From an uncultured bacterium (lineage in GTDB: Bacteria > Krumholzibacteriota > Krumholzibacteriia > WVZY01), in contig CAZZKJ010000004.1 in NCBI GenBank assembly GCA_964654695.1, positions 30,043 through 94,042 on the forward strand: a stretch of 64,000 nt of DNA. The letters run 5' to 3'. Positions 23,221 through 57,662 of the stretch are shown piece after piece. The position numbers and the translations under genes were made by a program. The notes beneath the pieces are model-generated. The model was not told the DNA's origin and made no database searches. It saw only the letters and a program-made list of their open reading frames with translations. Every line of letters starts with the position of its first letter. Within the stretch, counting starts at the first letter, position 1.

Positions 23221-24048
23221 ATGAATGACATCAGAAACGAAGTTAAGAAAAAATACGGAGATATCGCCAAACAGGATTCTTCGTCGTCCTGCTCGCCCGC
23301 AAGCGGCTGCTGCGGAGCGGGCCCCGCGGAAGTAATCAGCAAAAGAATTGGATACACTGATAAAGAATTGAAGGCAGTCCCCGATGGCGCCAATCTCGGT
23401 CTCGGGTGCGGCAATCCTTTGGCTCTGGCATCCATCAAGGAGGGCGATACGATCGTTGATCTGGGATCGGGGGCCGGTTTCGACTGTTTTCTTGCAGCAA
23501 AGAAAACCGGACCCGAAGGCAGGGTGATCGGGCTGGACATGACGCCCGAAATGATCGAAAAAGCCCGAAGTAACGCAAAAAAGAGCGGTTACGATAATGT
23601 GGAATTCAAGCTCGGCGAAATAGAGAAGATGCCCCTGCCCGATGGAACGGCTGATTTAATCATATCCAACTGCGTGATTAATCTGTCCCCGGATAAAGCG
23701 GCCGTGTTCGCGGAGACGTTCCGGGTGCTAAAACCCGGCGGACACATGATGATATCGGATATAGTCCTGCTCAAACCGCTTCCGGATTTTATAAGGGAAA
23801 ACGTTTACGCTTATGTCGGCTGTGTCGCCGGAGCGCTTCTCAAGGATGAATACACCAGGTTCATCGAAAAAGCGGGGTTCGAGGACATCGAGATTCTCGA
23901 TGAAAGCGTCTATGACCTCAAATGGCTGCTTGAAGATCCGGTGATGGCGTCGATTGCTAAAGCGAGCAGCCTGTCGGTCGATCAGCTCGAAAGCGTTCAG
24001 AAGTCGGTCGTTAGTTTGAAGGTGAGCGCGGTAAAACCGGCCAATTAG
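23221..24048 (+). CDS. arsM: Arsenite S-adenosylmethionine methyltransferase (ArsM/AS3MT family)
   Basis: Near-collinear with bacterial ArsM: CCGAG Cys pair, LGCGNP, VDLGSGAGFD SAM motif, ISNCVINL, YVGCVAGA third As-binding Cys. Confidence 0.8.
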   Translation: MNDIRNEVKKKYGDIAKQDSSSSCSPASGCCGAGPAEVISKRIGYTDKELKAVPDGANLGLGCGNPLALASIKEGDTIVDLGSGAGFDCFLAAKKTGPEGRVIGLDMTPEMIEKARSNAKKSGYDNVEFKLGEIEKMPLPDGTADLIISNCVINLSPDKAAVFAETFRVLKPGGHMMISDIVLLKPLPDFIRENVYAYVGCVAGALLKDEYTRFIEKAGFEDIEILDESVYDLKWLLEDPVMASIAKASSLSVDQLESVQKSVVSLKVSAVKPAN

Positions 24049-27667: not shown

Positions 27668-29542
27668 ATGATCAAGATGCGCTTCATAGCGGTTTCTCAA
27701 ATTCTGCTGATTTCAATTATCGTCTCGGTCTGGATTCCTGTGACTGTTCCCGCGATATCTATGGAGTCTTTCTCCGAAGATCCCGTTACGATCAAAACAT
27801 ATGCTTCGCTCTCTTCCCTTCCGCAGGGAGGGAGCATGGAACTCGCGGTGGAACTCGTAATAGACAGTGGGTGGCACATTAATGCGAATAAGGTGAATGA
27901 TCCTTACATGATACCCACGTCCATAATCATCGAATCCGTTCCGGGACTAACTGTTGAAAAAGTGGTCTATCCTCGCGGCATTGAAAAAACCCTGTCCTTT
28001 TCGGAATCCCCTTTGCCTCTTTACAGCCGCAGGGCCCTGATCGGTATTCTCATAAAGGCCGCTCCCAGCGTTTCCATCGGCGAAGCCGTATTTAACGCAG
28101 CCGTCACCTATCAGGCGTGCGACGACAAACGCTGCCTTGCACCGATCGAGAAGAAAATCGATATACGCGTTACAGTATCATCACCCAAGGAGGCGGTCGA
28201 TGCCCGCTTTCCGGAGATTTTTGCCTCGTTGAACCTGCGGGAAGATGCTGGGAATTCCGGTGCCGGTTCATCCGGGGAGAATATATCTCAAAACGGGCAG
28301 GCTCGAAGGCTTCAAAACCTGATGAAAACCCGGGGACTGCCTTTTGTCCTTTTGATCATATTCATGGGCGGGCTGGCCCTCGATCTCACCCCATGCGTGT
28401 ATCCCGTCATTCCCATCACGGTCAGTTATTTCGGAGGCCAAAGCGAAGGAAGATCGGCAGGAACATTCTTACTGGCCTCTCTGTACGTGCTGGGTATGGC
28501 CGCGATGTATTCGTCTCTGGGATTAGCCGCCGCTCTGACGGGCAGCATGTTCGGAACGGCTTTACAGAACATGTACGTTCTTTTCGGCGTCGCCCTGATC
28601 ATGGTCCTGCTCGCTTTGTCGATGTTCGGACTCTATGAGCTCAGGATACCCGCGAGCATAAGTGCCATAGCCGGAACTTCCAAACAAGGCCCCATCGGCG
28701 CTTTTCTGATGGGCCTGACCGTAGGCATCGTGGCCGCTCCCTGCATCGGCCCTTTCGTGCTGGGCCTGCTGACGTTCGTCGGCGAAACCGGCAACCCCGC
28801 TCTCGGATTTTTGCTCTTTTTCACACTGGCTTTGGGGCTCGGCCTGCCATTCATGGTACTTGCGGTTTTGTCGGGCAGCATCTCCCGCCTGCCGAGATCG
28901 GGAGAATGGATGGAGTGGGTCCGAAAAATGTTCGGAGTAGTTTTGCTGGCCATGGCGGTATATTTCCTGGAATCAGTTCTGGGTTCCGTAACATTCTATC
29001 TGCTCCTCGGCCTTCTTTTGGCAACCAGTGGAATCATCCTGGGATTCGTTTTAAAATCATCCACGCAGGGATTTTTCTTCAATCTTATCCGAAAACTAAC
29101 GGGCCTGGCGGTTCTCCTCTTTGGGCTTTACCTGTTATTCGCTCCCGGACATATTTTCAACCGCAATGAAACCGGAGGCATAGCCTGGCAGGAATTCAAC
29201 CGCGATCTATTGACAAAGGCAGCAGCGGGTAAAAAACCTGTGATGATCGATTTCTTCGCAGATTGGTGCCTGCCGTGCAAGGAGTTGGACCACAGGACGT
29301 TCTCGCGTTCCAAGGTTATAGATGCTTCCAGGAAAATCTTAGCCTTGAAAGCCGATCTTACCCGGTCGGCATCTCCGGAAGTAATCGCAATTAAAAAATT
29401 CTACAAGATAAAGGGTGTTCCAACCGTCGTTTTCATAGACGGGCAGGGGAAAGAAAGACAGGATCTTCGTGTATTCGGATTTGTAGGCGCAGATGATTTC
29501 ACCGGCCGTTTGGAACGGCTCAAAGGACCTGCATCGAAATGA
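27668..29542 (+). CDS. dsbD: Thiol:disulfide interchange protein DsbD (N-terminal DsbD-alpha-like domain, CcdA-type TM core, C-terminal thioredoxin domain)
   Basis: TM-core Cys pair (LTPCVYP ... AAPCIGP), C-terminal DFFADWCLPCK CxxC. Confidence 0.8.
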   Translation: MIKMRFIAVSQILLISIIVSVWIPVTVPAISMESFSEDPVTIKTYASLSSLPQGGSMELAVELVIDSGWHINANKVNDPYMIPTSIIIESVPGLTVEKVVYPRGIEKTLSFSESPLPLYSRRALIGILIKAAPSVSIGEAVFNAAVTYQACDDKRCLAPIEKKIDIRVTVSSPKEAVDARFPEIFASLNLREDAGNSGAGSSGENISQNGQARRLQNLMKTRGLPFVLLIIFMGGLALDLTPCVYPVIPITVSYFGGQSEGRSAGTFLLASLYVLGMAAMYSSLGLAAALTGSMFGTALQNMYVLFGVALIMVLLALSMFGLYELRIPASISAIAGTSKQGPIGAFLMGLTVGIVAAPCIGPFVLGLLTFVGETGNPALGFLLFFTLALGLGLPFMVLAVLSGSISRLPRSGEWMEWVRKMFGVVLLAMAVYFLESVLGSVTFYLLLGLLLATSGIILGFVLKSSTQGFFFNLIRKLTGLAVLLFGLYLLFAPGHIFNRNETGGIAWQEFNRDLLTKAAAGKKPVMIDFFADWCLPCKELDHRTFSRSKVIDASRKILALKADLTRSASPEVIAIKKFYKIKGVPTVVFIDGQGKERQDLRVFGFVGADDFTGRLERLKGPASK

Positions 29543-32761: not shown

Positions 32762-33781
32762 CTATAGAGTTCTTGCAATCAATCGAATCTTCAATGTCGG
32801 TTCTTGAGGATCATCGGTCTTGATAATCATTTCATCCGAATAATTCCTCCTGGAGCTATCCGGCGTGAAATTTACCCGAACGACGTATTTTCTGCCGGAT
32901 TCAATAGGATTGATCGACGCCGAATAGTAATCCCTGCTGAAATCGATGTGTTTTATCTTGAACTCGCCTTTTATTTTGCTTACCGTAATGGTTTTCTGAT
33001 AGCCTTTCGGAGTTTGAGACTTTCCCCCGACTTGAACCCTGCCGAAATTGATGATTGAAGGCTGAGCTTTTATCATCGCGCGCGTCGTAACATTGACTTG
33101 AATGACTTTCTCAGGGCTGTGTTTGCTGTTGGTGTGCACCTTGATAGATCCCCACGTATTGACCGCGGGAAGCTTCGGATTCTTCCAGATACGGATTTTG
33201 AACGAATTAGGAGTGTTACCTTTGTCTACTTTGTATGTAATCTTCTCATCTATGTTGGATTCCAGTTTCGTAATGGCGAAGTTTTCGCCGGACTCGTTAG
33301 ATATAATGTCTATTTCCTTTTCGACCGGTTCTCCAAACATGCCGGCTAGATATACGCGGTCGGCAGGTTGAACTTCCACATAGTGCCTGATCGTTCCCGA
33401 TAGAGTAAGAGTCATCCTCGGGTGTTTGGGATCATTCGATATTACGGTTGCACTTTTATTGAAGGTGCCGTGCACCCTTTTTCCATCGATTTCCAGAGTC
33501 ACTTTTCCCTCCTGACCAGGAGGAATGACCTTATCAAACTTGGCCACTGTGCAGCCTCACCCAGGTTTTACACGGTTGATAACCAGGTCGGCTTTGCCCT
33601 TATTGCGGATCATGAATTCATGCTTGAACGTTTCTATTTCGAAAACCGTTCCGAAATCATGTCTTAACTTTGATATAAAAATCTCTGGTTGATTGCCCTC
33701 GGTTTTCGCTGCTTGTACCGGGAAAAAAGCAAACAGTATGAGCAAAATAGCAAAGTATCCTGCCGTCATATTTTTTCTCAT
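32762..33781 (-). CDS. DUF1573 domain protein (secreted, two tandem Ig-like DUF1573 units) with an in-frame TGA at 33557..33559 at the position of the first Cys of the conserved SCGCT motif. Candidate selenoprotein; alternatively a nonsense-disrupted gene.
   Basis: The ORF track splits the gene in two (33557..33883 and 32762..33547), but the junction reads INRVKPG-[TGA]-GCTVAKFDKVIPPG, against the DUF1573 consensus ..ASCGCTVP.W....PG. Start reassigned to the ATG at 33781 (MRKNMTAGYFAILLILFAFFPVQA signal peptide), which has an AAGGAG RBS 7 nt upstream. TGA is used as an ordinary stop in neighbouring genes (porB, dsbD, the FAH gene). Confidence 0.5.
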
Positions 33782-51294: not shown

Positions 51295-52065
51295 TTATCT
51301 CCGCACGGAATCTTCTTCACGGGCCGACAGGTACCCCTGGCGCCGGAGGGGAAGTTCGAGCATGCATTTCCGCAGTAGTTCCTCCTTGCCCAGGATTTCA
51401 TGTGCAGGCCCGTCCGCGTGAATTCGGCCTTCAAAAATCAGTATGCACCGCATCGCCGTTTCCGCGGCCAGATCCATATCGTGTGTTGCAAAGATCATGC
51501 TTCTGCGATCTTTCTTCATGAACTCAATGAATGCCTTCCTTTGGAAGGGATCCAGTCCTCCGCCGGGCTCATCCATTATTAAGATCTCCGGTTTCGCGGC
51601 GAGGATGCCGGCAAGGGCGACTCGTTTCTTTTCTCCGTTGCTGAGCTGGAACGGAGATTTGCCGGACAAATGCAAAATATCGAATTCCTTCAATATTTCA
51701 ACAGTCCTGGTTTCGACCTCAATTTTATCGAGGCCGAGGCATTTCGGCCCGAAAGCCACATCATCGAATACCGTTTTGCAAAACAACTGGTCATCGGAGC
51801 TTTGGAATAAGAACCCCATGCAGCGGCGAAGCTCGGCGAGGTTGTTCTTTCCAACGGGCGTCCCTTCATAAAAAACCGTGCCGCGTGATTGAATCAATCC
51901 TGCAATCGCCAGAAGAAGCGTGGTTTTCCCCGCCCCATTCGGGCCGATCACCGCAATTTTTTCTCCGCGCTTTAAACCGAAAGAAACTCCGTCCACGACG
52001 ATTTTTTTCGAATTGTAAGTATGTGTAATTCTTTCCAGGTATAGGAGGAAGTTCTTTGTTTTCAT
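51295..52065 (-). CDS. cbiO: ECF transporter ATPase (CbiO/EcfA)
   Basis: Walker A GPNGAGKTT, ABC signature LSNGEKKRV, Walker B ILIMDEP. Confidence 0.8.
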   Translation of the reverse strand: MKTKNFLLYLERITHTYNSKKIVVDGVSFGLKRGEKIAVIGPNGAGKTTLLLAIAGLIQSRGTVFYEGTPVGKNNLAELRRCMGFLFQSSDDQLFCKTVFDDVAFGPKCLGLDKIEVETRTVEILKEFDILHLSGKSPFQLSNGEKKRVALAGILAAKPEILIMDEPGGGLDPFQRKAFIEFMKKDRRSMIFATHDMDLAAETAMRCILIFEGRIHADGPAHEILGKEELLRKCMLELPLRRQGYLSAREEDSVRR

Positions 52066-52068
52066 GAC

Positions 52069-52824
52069 TCATAATTCCGTTCGGACCGCCCATATGCGCG
52101 CGGCCGCAATAAAAAGCATTAACGCCGAAACCAGCGTGAAGTTGACCGCCGTATTCCCTTCGGAACGGCCCGCGGATTCCGAGTACCCCCTGGCGCGCAT
52201 GGCAATGTATATCCTTTCCGCCGCCGCAACCGCTCGCAGAAACAGCGCGCCCACGCTTCCGGCCGGCAGTTTGATTCTATCCAAATATGACGAGTTCAAC
52301 TGTCTTGCCCTTCGCGCGGCAAGAAACCTTGAAACATCACTGCGGAAAATGTGCAGGAAATTGAGCATGATGCTCATGCAAATAACGGCGGGTTTGGTAA
52401 CACCGATCTTTTCGAGCACTTCAATGAATTCGCGAAGAAGAATCCCGTGCATAACTGCGGCGCCCACAATAACAGCAATAATAGTCCTCGAAACGATCAG
52501 CAGCACGATGGGAATGCTGTCCTCGTAATAATATATCGCAAACGGTGCCGACATCAGAACTTTCCTTTCCCCCGCTCCTCTAATGAATACCTGCAGAGAG
52601 ACAAGAACAAGCATAGGCATAATGAACATGCTTATGCCGGCGAGACGCTTTAATCCGATCCCGTAATAAATCACCAGGCCGGCAGCAAGAGGGCCGAAAA
52701 TGATAAGCGACTCCCACTGTTCCAGGGACACTGTGGCGATTCCAGGGACAGCAATAACGAAAATCGCCAATCTGTTGAATGCGTTTGATGACGGCATTTC
52801 GGATTTAGCGGGGTCGCATCTCAT
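52069..52824 (-). CDS. cbiQ: ECF transporter transmembrane T component (CbiQ/EcfT)
   Basis: 251 aa, 5-6 TM, position between cbiN-like and cbiO. Confidence 0.7.
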   Translation of the reverse strand: MRCDPAKSEMPSSNAFNRLAIFVIAVPGIATVSLEQWESLIIFGPLAAGLVIYYGIGLKRLAGISMFIMPMLVLVSLQVFIRGAGERKVLMSAPFAIYYYEDSIPIVLLIVSRTIIAVIVGAAVMHGILLREFIEVLEKIGVTKPAVICMSIMLNFLHIFRSDVSRFLAARRARQLNSSYLDRIKLPAGSVGALFLRAVAAAERIYIAMRARGYSESAGRSEGNTAVNFTLVSALMLFIAAARIWAVRTEL

Positions 52825-52827
52825 GAT

Positions 52828-53145
52828 TCAATCTTCCGGTAAAGAAGAAATGGCCTTATCCCGGGACCGGCGCCGGTTCAATATTCTCCACACCACGCAG
52901 GGCATAAACATTGACGCAATGCCCGCAAATCCCAGAAGAGTTTTTGATTGCGAAGAATACTTCGATCCGCCGAATCCTCCCGGACTGCCCGGCTCCGCTC
53001 GGCGAAGACCGAACCGCTCCAAGACGGTTTGGAGGCCGTCGGGCAAAGTAGAAGATACCGGCACGAGAAAAATTATAATTATGACGGCTGCAGCCAGCGC
53101 AACCGCCGGCACCAAAAGTTTTCTCTTCCTTGGACGCAATTTCAT
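52828..53145 (-). CDS. CbiN-like small membrane protein with PDGLE-type motif
   Basis: Two TM helices flanking PDGLQTVLERFG. Confidence 0.5.
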   Translation of the reverse strand: MKLRPRKRKLLVPAVALAAAVIIIIFLVPVSSTLPDGLQTVLERFGLRRAEPGSPGGFGGSKYSSQSKTLLGFAGIASMFMPCVVWRILNRRRSRDKAISSLPED

Positions 53146-53792
53146 ACAACCGGCCTTTTTCCCCTCAATACCGAAATGAGGTCCCTATCTGCTTCATAGA
53201 GAAAAACCACTATGAGACCAGTCAAAAGCCCTTCCCCAAGTCCAATTACCAAATGAACGCCGCACATCGCGGGCACTACCACGGATAACGGAACCGCTCC
53301 GGATAAAGCCAACTCGAGCGACACTGATAAAGCGCACATTATTACTGAAATCCAAGAAGATATTATCACGGCCGCGTGAAAAGCTTTAGCGCCCGTATAT
53401 ATTTTCATAAGAATTCTGAAGCTCAGCCAGGCCGACAAAGTCCCTATGAACGCCATGTTGACGATGTTTATGCCCAGTGCCGTTATCCCCCCGTCCTGCA
53501 GAATGAAGCATTGAACGATCAGCACCATGGACATAGCCGCTATTCCAAGCATCGGGCCCAGGATAAGAGCGCACAACGCGGCCCCCAGCAGGTGCCCGCT
53601 TACTCCGCCCGGCACCGGGAAATTGACCATTTGCGCCGCAAAAACGAAGGCGGCTGTAACACCCATAATTGGAGCAGTTTTGTTGTTGAAGATTCTCGCC
53701 AATCTTCTGAGGATTACAAACAGAGACACCGACGCTGCGGACCAGCCCGCCGCGCTCACCTTTACGCTCAAAAGTCCATCTGGAATATGCAT
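53142..53792 (-). CDS. cbiM: ECF transporter substrate-specific component CbiM (Co2+/Ni2+)
   Basis: N-terminal MHIPDG hallmark; 216 aa polytopic. Confidence 0.8.
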   Translation of the reverse strand: MHIPDGLLSVKVSAAGWSAASVSLFVILRRLARIFNNKTAPIMGVTAAFVFAAQMVNFPVPGGVSGHLLGAALCALILGPMLGIAAMSMVLIVQCFILQDGGITALGINIVNMAFIGTLSAWLSFRILMKIYTGAKAFHAAVIISSWISVIMCALSVSLELALSGAVPLSVVVPAMCGVHLVIGLGEGLLTGLIVVFLYEADRDLISVLRGKRPVV

Positions 53793-54178
53793 AACGCAGG
53801 AGTCCCGCTAAAGAGTTCAAAACAACAGCAGCAGTATCGGGACATCCTTATGGAAGTCCGCGGTCATAAACATAACTCAAACTCCGATACTCCCGGCTTT
53901 ATCGGATGATGATTCGCGGGCAAGAGCAGTTTTGATCAGATCCCTTATCGCTTCGGAACGGCTGCCGCAACCTTTTTATAACATTCTTCTTCCGATTTCG
54001 GCGGAGGAGAGTGTAACACAGATAATATTTTCGTGCTAGTTGATTTCCGGTGTTTCAGGGCAAAATTGAGATGGCAGGTCCGGATACGATCTGGTATTGT
54101 TATTGATCTCGAACGTATGCTTCAGCTATGATGCCGTCATCGAGTCCGAACCCGCAAACCGAACGCGATTGGGAAGAA

Positions 54179-54727
54179 ATGGCCTGGATTGAAGTTATAA
54201 AAGAAGACGACGCTCGGGGTTATCTTAAAACCCTGTATAAGAAATTCGGCAATCCTTTCGAGGGCGTTGACAACATCCTCAAGATACATAGTCTCAATCC
54301 TGAATCCCTTAAATACCATTATGATCTCTACAAACATCTTTCTTCGGGCCGGTCCGGTCTCAGCAGGATGCAAAGGGAAATGATAGCCGTCGTTGTGTCC
54401 GGCGCAAACAACTGCCATTACTGAGTGACCCACCACGCGAAGAGTCTCTTCCGATTAACCAAGAATAAGAACCTCGTCGAATCAATCCAGAGCGACTTCA
54501 GAAACGCTGATATCGGACAGAAAGATACGGTCATGCTGGAATACGCGGAAAAACTCGCCGTCTCTCCATGGAAAGCAGAGAAAAGTGACTGTGATCAATT
54601 GAGAAATGCCGGGTTCAAGGATGCGGATATTCTCGACATCGTTCAAGTGGCGGCCTATTTTTCATTCGTGAACCGCATTGCCAGCGGTCTCGGGGTTGAA
54701 TTAGAAAAGTATTGGGAAGAAAAGTGA
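54179..54727 (+). CDS. AhpD / carboxymuconolactone-decarboxylase family 'peroxidase-related' protein (TIGR01926-like) with in-frame TGA (54422..54424) at the second position of the C-x-x-C motif. Selenoprotein (C-x-x-U).
   Basis: The ORF track splits the gene at the TGA: ...VVSGANNCHY-[TGA]-VTHHAKSLF... = CxxU...H, where the AhpD family has CxxC...H. Start reassigned to the ATG at 54179 (MAWIEVIKEDDARGYL...), as homologues of this family begin MxWI. AhpD-like proteins are a known bacterial selenoprotein family. Confidence 0.7.
54436..54453 (+). promoter_or_regulatory. Candidate bacterial SECIS stem-loop immediately downstream of the UGA of the AhpD-like gene
   Basis: With U of UGA = 1: stem C16-G17/(C bulged at 17-18)/GAAGA : UCUUC closing a GUC loop with G23-U24. 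This reproduces the E. coli fdhF SECIS geometry (bulge at ~17, conserved G23 U24). Confidence 0.5.
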
Positions 54728-54791
54728 TTAGGCGCGAATCGTTCTTTTCGATCGCTTCCGGCATTTAGATCTGGAATTTATCCGATAAAGT

Positions 54792-55883
54792 TCAAGGCAG
54801 GAATCTTTCCGGATGCTTTATCTTTTCCGGAAGGTAATTATCGATAACGTAATTCAATCCGTGCTTGGCCAGCGCCTGTTGTTCCGCCCTTACTCCCATC
54901 TTGATCATTCGCTCCAGGGCTCTTTGCCACGGATTATGATGAAGCACAAAAGGATCATTCTTAAGAGCATCCTTCGCTCTTTTTATATCAACTTCCTTGA
55001 GGGGATGTGTGGGGAGTTCGTATTTAATAATATCATTTGGAGTTATACCCAGGAACTTTGCCTGCGGCACGCAAAAATATTCGTTTAAATGAGCTGAATT
55101 ACCGCTGCCCACTTTAAGCGTGCGGTAGATGTTGCTCATCCCGTACGGATCACCGTCGACAAAAACATAAACCGGCAGCTTTTTCTTGTCGGACAGCCTC
55201 CTTATAAAACGCCTGCATGCGCGAGTCGGCACACCTCCCATGGATACCAGGATGCAGTCGGCTTTTTTCCAATAGCTGTGCTTCACCAGGCGTTGGAACA
55301 TTCCCGCCGTTTCTATAGCGAGAATAAAAGTCGCTTTCGTTTCAAAATCAAGCTCCTCAACGGATATGGGAATCGAGTATGCTCCGCTTCCGAATTTCGT
55401 GCAGTCGATTTTCAAAGATTTCCCAGTATCACGATCCTTATCGATTACTACAAGTTTTCCTGCGACCTCTCCACCTTTTTCTTCGGGAATAAACCCCAGC
55501 TGCTCGCGGTTCAATCCGAAGAATGCCTCTATGTCATCCATGACTGTATCCGATTCGGTCTGCTCATTGAACCTCGCCGCATCCCAGTTTTTCGATACGT
55601 AATAGGCTTCCCTTTTAGTGGCTATATCATTGGTTTCAGCTAATTCTTTCGACAGGGCCATCATGCGCAGCGACTGCGCGTAGGTTTTTACTGTATTAAC
55701 GGTGAGGGTTCGCTCCTTTTTCTTGCCGCGCATCTCGAAAAAACCTCTCCGCGGGTGATAGCGGACGTTCGAAAGCGACCGGAGCGGGAGTTTCATGGAA
55801 GGTTTATTTCCTTTCAGGATAGAATCCTTGACCCTCTTCGCTTCACTCTTGATAAGCTTGGCAACTTTCTCGGTGGACGACAA
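54792..55883 (-). CDS. top6A: DNA topoisomerase VI subunit A (Spo11/Top6A; winged-helix plus Toprim)
   Basis: TKREAYYVS (catalytic Tyr region), Toprim acidic residues (LAIETAG ... VFVDGDPYG). Confidence 0.8.
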   Translation of the reverse strand: MSSTEKVAKLIKSEAKRVKDSILKGNKPSMKLPLRSLSNVRYHPRRGFFEMRGKKKERTLTVNTVKTYAQSLRMMALSKELAETNDIATKREAYYVSKNWDAARFNEQTESDTVMDDIEAFFGLNREQLGFIPEEKGGEVAGKLVVIDKDRDTGKSLKIDCTKFGSGAYSIPISVEELDFETKATFILAIETAGMFQRLVKHSYWKKADCILVSMGGVPTRACRRFIRRLSDKKKLPVYVFVDGDPYGMSNIYRTLKVGSGNSAHLNEYFCVPQAKFLGITPNDIIKYELPTHPLKEVDIKRAKDALKNDPFVLHHNPWQRALERMIKMGVRAEQQALAKHGLNYVIDNYLPEKIKHPERFLP

Positions 55884-55928
55884 CGACTGCTCCTTTGCAT
55901 TATGAACTGTTTGCCGGATTGCGCGGAA

Positions 55929-57662
55929 CTACATTTTCCGGCTCCGCTCAAGTGTGTTCTTCAGTTTCGACACAACGCGTTTCTCCTCTTTTTCCGAAAA
56001 TGACAGGATCTCACGCAGGGCTATACCGATGTGAGGTATATATTGCTCTATATAAGAAGTTTTCTTTGCTTCCTCGCGGGCTTTTATACCTTTCCTGATG
56101 AATCTTCCAAGCTTTCTTCCACATTCCTGCAGAGCCAGCTTGATTTCCTTTATGATTTCCGGGTAATGGGCTAAAGCTTCCTTGCTTTCCGAGGTGAACG
56201 GCACCCAAACCGAAGCAATATGCACGATGATAACCATGGGCGCGCACGGGAGCGCCCCTCTGGATTGCTGGATATTATAACCTTTCCAGGCGATACCGAT
56301 GACCGATTGGGTAATTGCGCATGCCGACTGCTGGTAGATCAGGGGAGTCCGGTTTGCAAATCTATTGAGCTTTATCGTTTCATCATCATCATGACCGGCA
56401 CTACCGTACGCTATGGCGGCTTCTATCTGAAAGGGATTGCCGCGGTAAACCGCGGGCGGCCTCGTTGCGGCGGCAAAAAACTTTGCATCTGTTTCGCGGC
56501 TCAGGCTCTTGATAAGAAGGTCTTCTCCTATGGAGGACAGGCAGTTTGTAGGCGGCTTCATAAGCCTGGCGCCGGAGAACGCATTCAAAAGAGCTTCGGC
56601 TTTTTCCCGGGACAGTCTCTTGGGTGAGGTGGAAGATGACAACCCTGCCCGGTCGATAATTTCCTGCGAGCTTTTAGCACTAACCCGGGAAAACTCCGAG
56701 GTGAGAAATCCACTTAAATTGCGGGACTTGGTCGTTTTCAACATGTCAATAAGCACGCCCAGTTCCACGCCGTGCGGGTGCGGTTTTATCGTTAAAGGTT
56801 CTTCGGGCAGCTTGTCGCTCAGGCGCTCGTAAACAACCTCTCCATCCTTCGGTCCCCTGTAGACCATGTGTACATGCGGGTTGGCGATGGCCACCTGCCG
56901 GATATATGCATCAACCGAACGCTGTCCGCGCTTATATGACGCCAGCATTTCCATCTCGATCCTGGTTCCATGTTCTTTTTCCCAGGACACTTCTTTTTCC
57001 GATAGAATAACAGGCGTATTGCTTTTGGTGTTGATCTGGAGTTCATATGTCCGTGCGGGTCTTCCGGCTCCGGTCTTCGAGACTATTCTCACCGGTTTCC
57101 CGGTTGTAAGCTGGGAGTACATCACCGCAGCGGAAATACCTATACCCTGCTGTCCTCTAGACTGCTTCAGAGAATGAAATTTCGAACCATAAAGAAGCTT
57201 GCCGAAAATTTTCGGCACCTGGGCTTTTACGATTCCGGGCCCTGAGTCTTCGACTATGCAGCAAAACCTGTTTTCTTCCAGTTCCTTTATCTCCACAAGG
57301 ATGTCGGGAAGGATGTGCGCTTCTTCGCAGGCATCGAGGGAATTATCAACCGCTTCCTTGACGGCGGTCAGCAAGGCTTTTGGAAGACTGTCAAAACCAA
57401 GCAGGTGCCGGTTCTTGGCAAAAAACTCGCTTATGGAAATTTCTCTTTGCTTAAGAGCAATCGCCTGTGCCGTTCTGTGGGTATCTTGTGAAACAGCTGG
57501 TTTTTTGTTTTTCTTTGCCTGACCGGAATCATTTTCAGAATTAAAAAGAGGCAGATCATCAACTCTTCTTTTCGGTTTTCCGCTCTTTTTTACAAGCTTC
57601 TTGCCGGCTTTGACCACTACATTCTCCAAACTAAGCTGTGAAGCTGCCATGGAATAACCCAC
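55929..57662 (-). CDS. top6B: DNA topoisomerase VI subunit B (GHKL/Bergerat ATPase plus transducer). GTG start.
   Basis: Bergerat-fold N-box EAVDNSLDA, G1/G2 boxes (DSGPGI, GQQGIGISAA); B-then-A order as in archaeal top6BA operons. Confidence 0.8.
   Translation of the reverse strand: MGYSMAASQLSLENVVVKAGKKLVKKSGKPKRRVDDLPLFNSENDSGQAKKNKKPAVSQDTHRTAQAIALKQREISISEFFAKNRHLLGFDSLPKALLTAVKEAVDNSLDACEEAHILPDILVEIKELEENRFCCIVEDSGPGIVKAQVPKIFGKLLYGSKFHSLKQSRGQQGIGISAAVMYSQLTTGKPVRIVSKTGAGRPARTYELQINTKSNTPVILSEKEVSWEKEHGTRIEMEMLASYKRGQRSVDAYIRQVAIANPHVHMVYRGPKDGEVVYERLSDKLPEEPLTIKPHPHGVELGVLIDMLKTTKSRNLSGFLTSEFSRVSAKSSQEIIDRAGLSSSTSPKRLSREKAEALLNAFSGARLMKPPTNCLSSIGEDLLIKSLSRETDAKFFAAATRPPAVYRGNPFQIEAAIAYGSAGHDDDETIKLNRFANRTPLIYQQSACAITQSVIGIAWKGYNIQQSRGALPCAPMVIIVHIASVWVPFTSESKEALAHYPEIIKEIKLALQECGRKLGRFIRKGIKAREEAKKTSYIEQYIPHIGIALREILSFSEKEEKRVVSKLKNTLERSRKM

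Follow-up and report, generated by a model that had tools for sequence, protein, structure and literature searches.

AhpD-like proteins are an established family of bacterial selenoproteins, in which selenocysteine (Sec, U) occupies the second position of a C-x-x-U redox motif. In the table of the Global Ocean Sampling (GOS) survey, the group 'AhpD-like 1' (COG2128, CxxU) counts 299 Sec members and 902 Cys homologues, and OS_HP2 (pfam07610, UxC) stands in the same table (PMC2398784). A review published in 2026 lists 'AhpD-like protein, TIGR01926, CxxU' together with 'DUF1573, PF07610, UGC' (PMC13188914). The closest described recoding signal is the selenocysteine insertion sequence (SECIS) of Escherichia coli fdhF. 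Counting the U of UGA as nt 1, a numbering kept throughout, its minimal form covers nt 15-31, begins 11 nt from the UGA and has a bulged U17 and G23/U24 in its loop; for E. coli, G23, U24 and the nt 17 bulge have been reported to be critical (PMC8659212). A gene of this kind was found in a stretch of 64,000 nucleotides of contig CAZZKJ010000004.1, from an uncultured bacterium of the Krumholzibacteriia. The whole stretch is called the window here, and a preliminary description of it, made from the letters alone, had already named the gene as a member of this established family, in agreement with both lists.

The gene is very probably a functional Sec-encoding one, that is, a single gene at 54179..54727 on the + strand whose UGA at 54422 would be recoded to Sec. 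As such, it is an ordinary new member of an already catalogued selenoprotein family, and it brings nothing new on the mechanism of Sec decoding or on the function of AhpD-like proteins. Its main features are the following, the limits of the coding sequence being drawn from the starts of homologues, from hidden Markov model (HMM) matches and from the proportions of nonsynonymous (pN) and synonymous (pS) differences.

54103..54132, + strand: promoter-like site TTGATC-18-TATGAT, a weak match to the consensus (9/12 matches)
54128..54178, + strand: 17-codon N-terminal extension, possible but unlikely, in a frame open from the ATG at 54128
54179..54727, + strand: predicted coding sequence of the AhpD-like (TIGR01926) selenoprotein, 182 residues and a stop codon, with Sec at residue 82
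54413..54415, + strand: TGC, Cys79, first residue of C-x-x-U, a Cys in 117/120 best homologues
54422..54424, + strand: in-frame TGA, predicted Sec82, aligned to the second Cys of CxxC
54431..54436, + strand: CAC CAC, His85-His86, which supply the '...His' of the AhpD-type motif, both invariant in an alignment with 20 homologues
54436..54453, + strand: SECIS-like hairpin, nt 15-32, with bulged C17 (54438) and loop G23-U24-C25 (54444..54446)

A single frame runs open from 54128 to the stop codon TGA at 54725..54727, with the TGA at 54422..54424 as its sole interruption. The preliminary description had joined two adjacent open reading frames (ORFs) into one gene across the junction ANNCHY-[TGA]-VTHH. 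These are exactly the two ORFs of the mechanical list (54128..54424 and 54425..54727), and the same residues are read at 54422, the + strand sequence at 54413..54436 being TGC CAT TAC TGA GTG ACC CAC CAC. The union of both ORFs is upheld by the profile searches, for which the read-through product of 199 residues from 54128 was used with the TGA read as Cys. The NCBIfam model TIGR01926 'peroxidase-related enzyme' matches residues 19-191 of 199, across the stop, with 155 bits for a cutoff of 81.8, and the Pfam carboxymuconolactone decarboxylase (CMD) model PF02627 passes with 42 bits. Both families that had been proposed as a check are thus recovered. Taken singly, the 5' fragment stays under the Pfam cutoff and the 3' one gives no family match in the profile searches. 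The model of true AhpD, TIGR00777, reaches 17.8 bits for a cutoff of 191.95; judged by these scores, the window protein is 'AhpD-like' only and no AhpD orthologue.

The position of the TGA within the active site is equally well defined. In an alignment with 20 homologues, as in the corresponding column of the 120 best ones, it coincides with the second Cys of the CxxC motif of Cys homologues, and the two His residues after the motif (H102/H103 in the 199-residue numbering) are invariant among the 20. The closest solved structure is PDB 3C1L (E = 1e-32), others being 2PFX, 6K40, 2OYO and 2PRR, and in the alignments to 3C1L and 2PFX the TGA falls at the second Cys of 'C-Y-Y-C' and 'C-F-Y-C'. Homologues and structures thus agree with the earlier proposal that the TGA replaces the second Cys of the AhpD-type Cys-x-x-Cys...His site. 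The protein shares the CMD/AhpD fold family with Mycobacterium tuberculosis AhpD (TIGR00777) and with these five structures, among them 3C1L (Mlr4105), and keeps their C-x-x-C-x-x-x-H register with the Sec codon on the second Cys, whereas the solved homologues are all Cys proteins and the window gene has no ahpC neighbour. The resemblance to the AhpD-like selenoproteins of the Sargasso Sea and GOS data is closer, as it extends to a TIGR01926 score above the curated cutoff, a CxxU motif with Sec second, a length of about 182 residues and a SECIS inside the coding sequence directly 3' of the UGA. The window gene differs from them in its loop (AGUCU/GUC) and in a Ser codon at +7, where the family has a near-universal GGN Gly codon.

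The 3' end of the gene is as first described, at 54727, whereas for the 5' end, given there as 54128, the ATG at 54179 is the more likely start. A start of the type M-A/S/T-W/F/Y-I is found in 19/20 aligned homologues and aligns to ATG 54179 (MAWIE...), and the 17-residue extension from ATG 54128 is absent in 19/20 of them. No sequence resembling a Shine-Dalgarno (SD) site was found upstream of ATG 54128. The start at 54179 is favoured because homologues begin there and because the promoter-like site at 54103..54132 overlaps ATG 54128, the latter point being weak evidence, as promoter-like sites are no more numerous in this region than shuffling predicts. Comparison with the closest relative in the species-genome collection (L086, 75% amino acid identity) gives pN and pS of 0.14 and 0.73 upstream of the TGA, and of 0.17 and 0.84 downstream of it. 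As pN lies far below pS 3' of the TGA, the 3' half must have evolved as translated sequence.

The TGA is widely kept among relatives, whose DNA was taken from metagenomes (85 loci) and from one genome per species (80 loci). It stands at exactly the aligned codon in 76/85 metagenome loci and in 74/80 species-genome loci, L086 included. The lineages with a TGA form comprise Acidobacteriota (many of them Pyrinomonadaceae), Chloroflexota, Calditrichota, KSB1, Gemmatimonadota, Marinimicrobia, a deltaproteobacterium and Krumholzibacteriia. The 120 best public predicted proteins offer another picture of the same column, with 61 C, 32 W, 21 G, 3 S and 3 A. The DNA behind the 'W' was read for five proteins. 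In P0049, P0095 and P0096 the codon is a TGA translated with code 4, and in P0029 and P0035 (NCBI entries, Latescibacterota) it is a genuine TGG Trp codon. A database artefact is thereby exposed, since the 'W' of the three non-Latescibacterota proteins read is a mistranslated Sec codon. Public 'W' homologues include P0048-P0075, P0095 and P0096, and the DNA loci read were L002, L169 and L170.

The residue at +7 separates the forms further. A Gly, whose GGN codon provides G22 and G23, is found there in 28/32 'W' forms vs 2/61 Cys forms, the Cys forms carrying Ala, Ser or Asn. In the proteins checked, 'W' stood for TGA in 3/3 cases with Gly or UCU-Ser at +7 and for a true TGG in the two cases with AGC-Ser at +7. 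The Gly at +7 of the Sec forms is explained by the SECIS loop, whose G22/G23 are written into the protein sequence.

This signal was followed through 136 unique TGA sequences, a set that leaves L169 and L170 outside. In 128/136, a helix of about 7 bp carries an apical loop in which nt 23 is free of pairing; the helix starts at nt 12-16 in 132/136, and G22 and G23 are each present in 135/136. The mean minimum free energy (MFE) of nt 10-40 amounts to -8.3 kcal/mol in TGA forms vs 0 to -3.8 in TGC/TGT, TGG and GGT/GGC forms, and the TGY, TGG and GGY forms have no such hairpin after the site. The stems differ entirely from lineage to lineage with pairing kept (among them GGAAGA/UCUUCC, GGAAAA/UUUUCC, GCCGAA/UUCGGC, GGAGC/GCUCC and GGCC/GGCC). 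Compensatory changes on both sides occur in 5/7 pairs, and neither the pairing nor the covariation score observed is attained by any shuffle (0/500). The largest register class has 95% of its cells paired, vs 29-50% when the partner is slid. Taken together, the TGA forms also fold better than synonymous-codon shuffles (mean z = -0.78). RNAalifold returned no consensus structure for the 136 ungapped TGA sequences because the 3' arm stands in several registers (i+j = 44, 46, 47 and 48); the sequences were therefore analysed singly and by register class.

The window hairpin was folded with RNAfold over 54422..54470, and the check that had been suggested for it did return a stem-loop of the proposed geometry at 54436..54453. 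C15 pairs with G32 and G16 with C31, C17 is bulged, G18-C30 through A22-U26 are paired, and G23-U24-C25 form the loop. The fdhF-like geometry first described is therefore borne out for the G23/U24 loop; at nt 17 there is a single bulge as described, its base being C and not the U of fdhF. The hairpin further resembles the fdhF element in starting 11 nt after the UGA, spanning nt 15-32, having a single bulge at nt 17 and holding G23-U24 at its apex. It departs from it by a GUC triloop (an AGUCU pentaloop if A22-U26 opens) where fdhF has GGUC, by the C bulge where fdhF has U, by the lack of an extended lower stem and by a low stability (-5 kcal/mol). In most members of the family, no bulge forms at nt 17. 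A search of Rfam with the whole window at the gathering threshold, and with 54400..54500 at E <= 10, gave nothing relevant and no match to a bacterial SECIS.

The organism itself probably decodes UGA as Sec, as judged from a second gene. When the window was scanned in all frames for ORF pairs split by a TGA, only one further case looked real, the other 62 being out-of-frame noise or ordinary gene boundaries. Its features are as follows.

32762..33781, - strand: second predicted selenoprotein gene, OS_HP2/DUF1573, motif G-U-G-C-T, TGA at 33559..33557
33525..33506, - strand: hairpin of 8 bp closed by a GGUC loop, some 35-54 nt downstream of the UGA of this gene

The read-through product matches NF041425 'OS_HP2 family (seleno)protein' with 110.9 bits for a cutoff of 100 and PF07610 with 90 bits, both matches spanning the TGA, and a strong SD sequence, AAGGAG, precedes the ATG at 33781. 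It is likely a secreted protein and a second selenoprotein: as in the known OS_HP2/DUF1573 selenoproteins (NF041425, UGC), for which the Sec motif is listed as UxC/UGC (PMC2398784, PMC13188914), the window member has its TGA at the Sec position of the family. It is unrelated in fold (Ig-like, secreted) to the AhpD-like protein. With this in-frame-TGA gene of a selenoprotein family 21 kb away, Sec decoding in the organism is supported indirectly, and the uncultured bacterium probably uses the 21st amino acid.

What doubt remains is chiefly that the AhpD-like gene might be decaying in a Sec-shedding lineage. The lineage would then have lost Sec decoding or be losing it, the SECIS would be degenerate (A22, weak stem) and the TGA would terminate translation after an 81-residue fragment, the gene being a pseudogene on its way to the non-Sec state of its relatives. 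Such decay is improbable, and the observations that lend it some weight are also those that count against a functional Sec codon. The window hairpin is weak (-4.9 to -5.4 kcal/mol, z = -0.53 vs dinucleotide shuffles), with 53/200 dinucleotide shuffles folding at least as well and 15% of synonymous-codon shuffles folding as well, and its -4.9 is among the weaker values of the family, which spans -3.5 to -18.1. The window is alone among the 136 TGA sequences in having A at nt 22 (AGU Ser at +7), its Ser(+7) 'SLF' sequence recurs in the non-Sec Latescibacterota forms, and at nt 17 it bulges a C where fdhF has U. The TGA is gone from many Latescibacterota orthologues, those in synteny having GGA, TCA, GCA, TGG or TGY at the site. 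Finally, ARAGORN detected no tRNA, tRNA-Sec included, in the 64-kb window, and no tRNA-Sec in the flanks of 45 related loci.

Structure beyond chance and coding constraint is present in the family and not in the window hairpin taken alone, whose significance comes from the comparison with relatives only. Within that comparison, G23, U24 and the nt 17 bulge are kept in the window, and other lineages keep their TGA with non-GG loops, as in the TGA forms L169 and L170 with a UCU (Ser at +7) loop, so that loop diversity appears to be tolerated. Decay also fits poorly with a gene whose halves are both intact, free of further stops or frameshifts and still with pN far below pS after the TGA, with a sister sequence (L086) that is itself a TGA form, and with the intact second selenoprotein-family gene and its own in-frame TGA.

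It is highly improbable that the gene is an ordinary CxxC AhpD-like one whose TGA stems from faulty sequencing or assembly, or from a nonsense mutation that hit a TGY Cys codon very recently. In favour of this reading, TGA is one substitution from TGC/TGT and Cys forms are common (61/120 best matches). Against it, a second, near-identical assembly shows the TGA as well: the JGI metagenome contig 3300002231 KVRMV2_100116698 (L166, 20 kb) matches window positions 52142..54792 with a single mismatch over 2651 nt, and this speaks against a sequencing error. The TGA is moreover the majority state, found in 150/161 related loci, nearest relative included, and it is followed by a hairpin of SECIS geometry that the Cys, Trp and GGY forms do not have. 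The annotation of this JGI contig also illustrates how the gene is split by gene callers, as the preliminary description had expected: it holds two ORFs of 98 and 100 residues without Pfam or domain matches, an annotation that is corrected here.

Least probable of all is that the ORFs are two separate genes, that TGA is reassigned (code 4 Trp, code 25 Gly) or that it is read through generically without Sec, since the 'W' at the site in 32/120 public homologues, which could recall a reassignment, is in 3/5 proteins read at the DNA level a TGA mistranslated with code 4 and in the other two a TGG, since code 4 or 25 is ruled out by TGA being the commonest true stop of the window, where it ends 25/49 long ORFs, and since a single domain model spans the stop whereas the second ORF alone matches no family.

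With the gene read as a functional Sec-encoding one, a course of events can be proposed by homology. The product would be a 182-residue protein of the 'peroxidase-related enzyme' branch (TIGR01926/COG2128) with an AhpD/carboxymuconolactone-decarboxylase fold and a redox motif Cys79-His-Tyr-Sec82-Val-Thr-His85-His86. While the ribosome pauses at the UGA, SelB-GTP-Sec-tRNA(Sec) would be brought to it by the hairpin at 54436..54453, which lies 11 nt downstream. By analogy with AhpD-type thiol-disulfide oxidoreductases, Sec82 in the second redox position may form a selenenyl-sulfide with Cys79 while a substrate (a peroxide, a sulfenic acid or a disulfide) is reduced, the reactivity of Sec being perhaps tuned by the conserved His.

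The only lead worth following is the set of non-Cys replacements of Sec within one orthologue group. In selenoproteins, the exchange of Sec and Cys is the rule, and loss to non-Cys residues is uncommon. Within the Latescibacterota orthologue group, the codon of the Sec site takes many states. It is TGA in the window, in L086 and in the Krumholzibacteriia loci L090, L091 and L093; TGT/TGC in L089 and L092; TGG in L167 and L168; GGA in L001 (L088, CP070677.1); GGT/GGC in L007 and L011; TCA in L003; and GCA in L004 (L087). Of two complete Latescibacterota genomes, CP070677.1 has the GGA form and CP070631.1 a TGC form. A single substitution separates TGA from GGA, TCA, TGG or TGY, and GCA is one further step away. 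The Sec site thus looks hypervariable in the Latescibacterota group, while Cys79 and the His-His pair stay conserved. The GGA, TCA and GCA forms keep a hairpin like that of the window, unlike the TGY, TGG and GGY forms, and the hairpin of L003 (TCA) is stronger than 98.5% of synonymous shuffles.

In a neighbour-joining tree, a distance tree without support values built on few sequences, the TGA forms are basal and the window is sister to L086, the other Latescibacterota forming a mosaic of C, G, S, A and W. Together, these sequences suggest that Sec gave way repeatedly to residues other than Cys in the Latescibacterota group, with the SECIS outlasting it. It is possible, although the balance leans somewhat the other way, that Sec was repeatedly replaced there by non-Cys residues in an otherwise conserved protein, which would imply that with the loss of Sec decoding the second redox position turns dispensable or the protein takes a one-Cys or non-redox role; the window gene, which has a TGA but resembles the non-Sec forms in its A22/Ser(+7) SECIS, would then be a living intermediate. 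In a literature search, no link between Latescibacterota and AhpD-like selenoproteins was found, and the papers cited for the family make no mention of this lineage.

The AhpD-like gene stands alone, divergent from a transporter cluster and convergent with the genes of topoisomerase VI A/B.

53792..51295, - strand: cbiM-N-Q-O cluster of a cobalt/nickel energy-coupling factor (ECF) transporter
54792..57662, - strand: topoisomerase VI subunits A (363 residues) and B (577 residues)

The window is bacterial, as it carries genes of type II secretion/type IV pili, sigma-54 regulators and two-component systems, with a GC content of 49%. The order Lon-like protease, prepilin, AhpD-like protein, TopoVI-A, TopoVI-B is common to the window and to the complete Latescibacterota chromosome CP070677.1, in comparison with which the window has cbiM-N-Q-O as an insertion separating the prepilin gene from the AhpD-like one. 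The synteny of the AhpD-like gene with topoisomerase VI recurs in other Latescibacterota contigs. By this gene order, the window belongs most likely to the Latescibacterota or to a closely related lineage. Topoisomerase VI A/B are here found in a bacterium, and they adjoin the AhpD-like gene across Latescibacterota contigs.

Two further proteins of the window, identified from their sequences only, are Cys forms. An ArsM-like S-adenosylmethionine methyltransferase is encoded at 23221..24048 (+), and the arsenite S-adenosylmethyltransferases of the GOS table have Sec-containing members (PMC2398784). The other protein, encoded at 27668..29542 (+), is DsbD-like and has a thioredoxin WCLPC motif in its C-terminal part.

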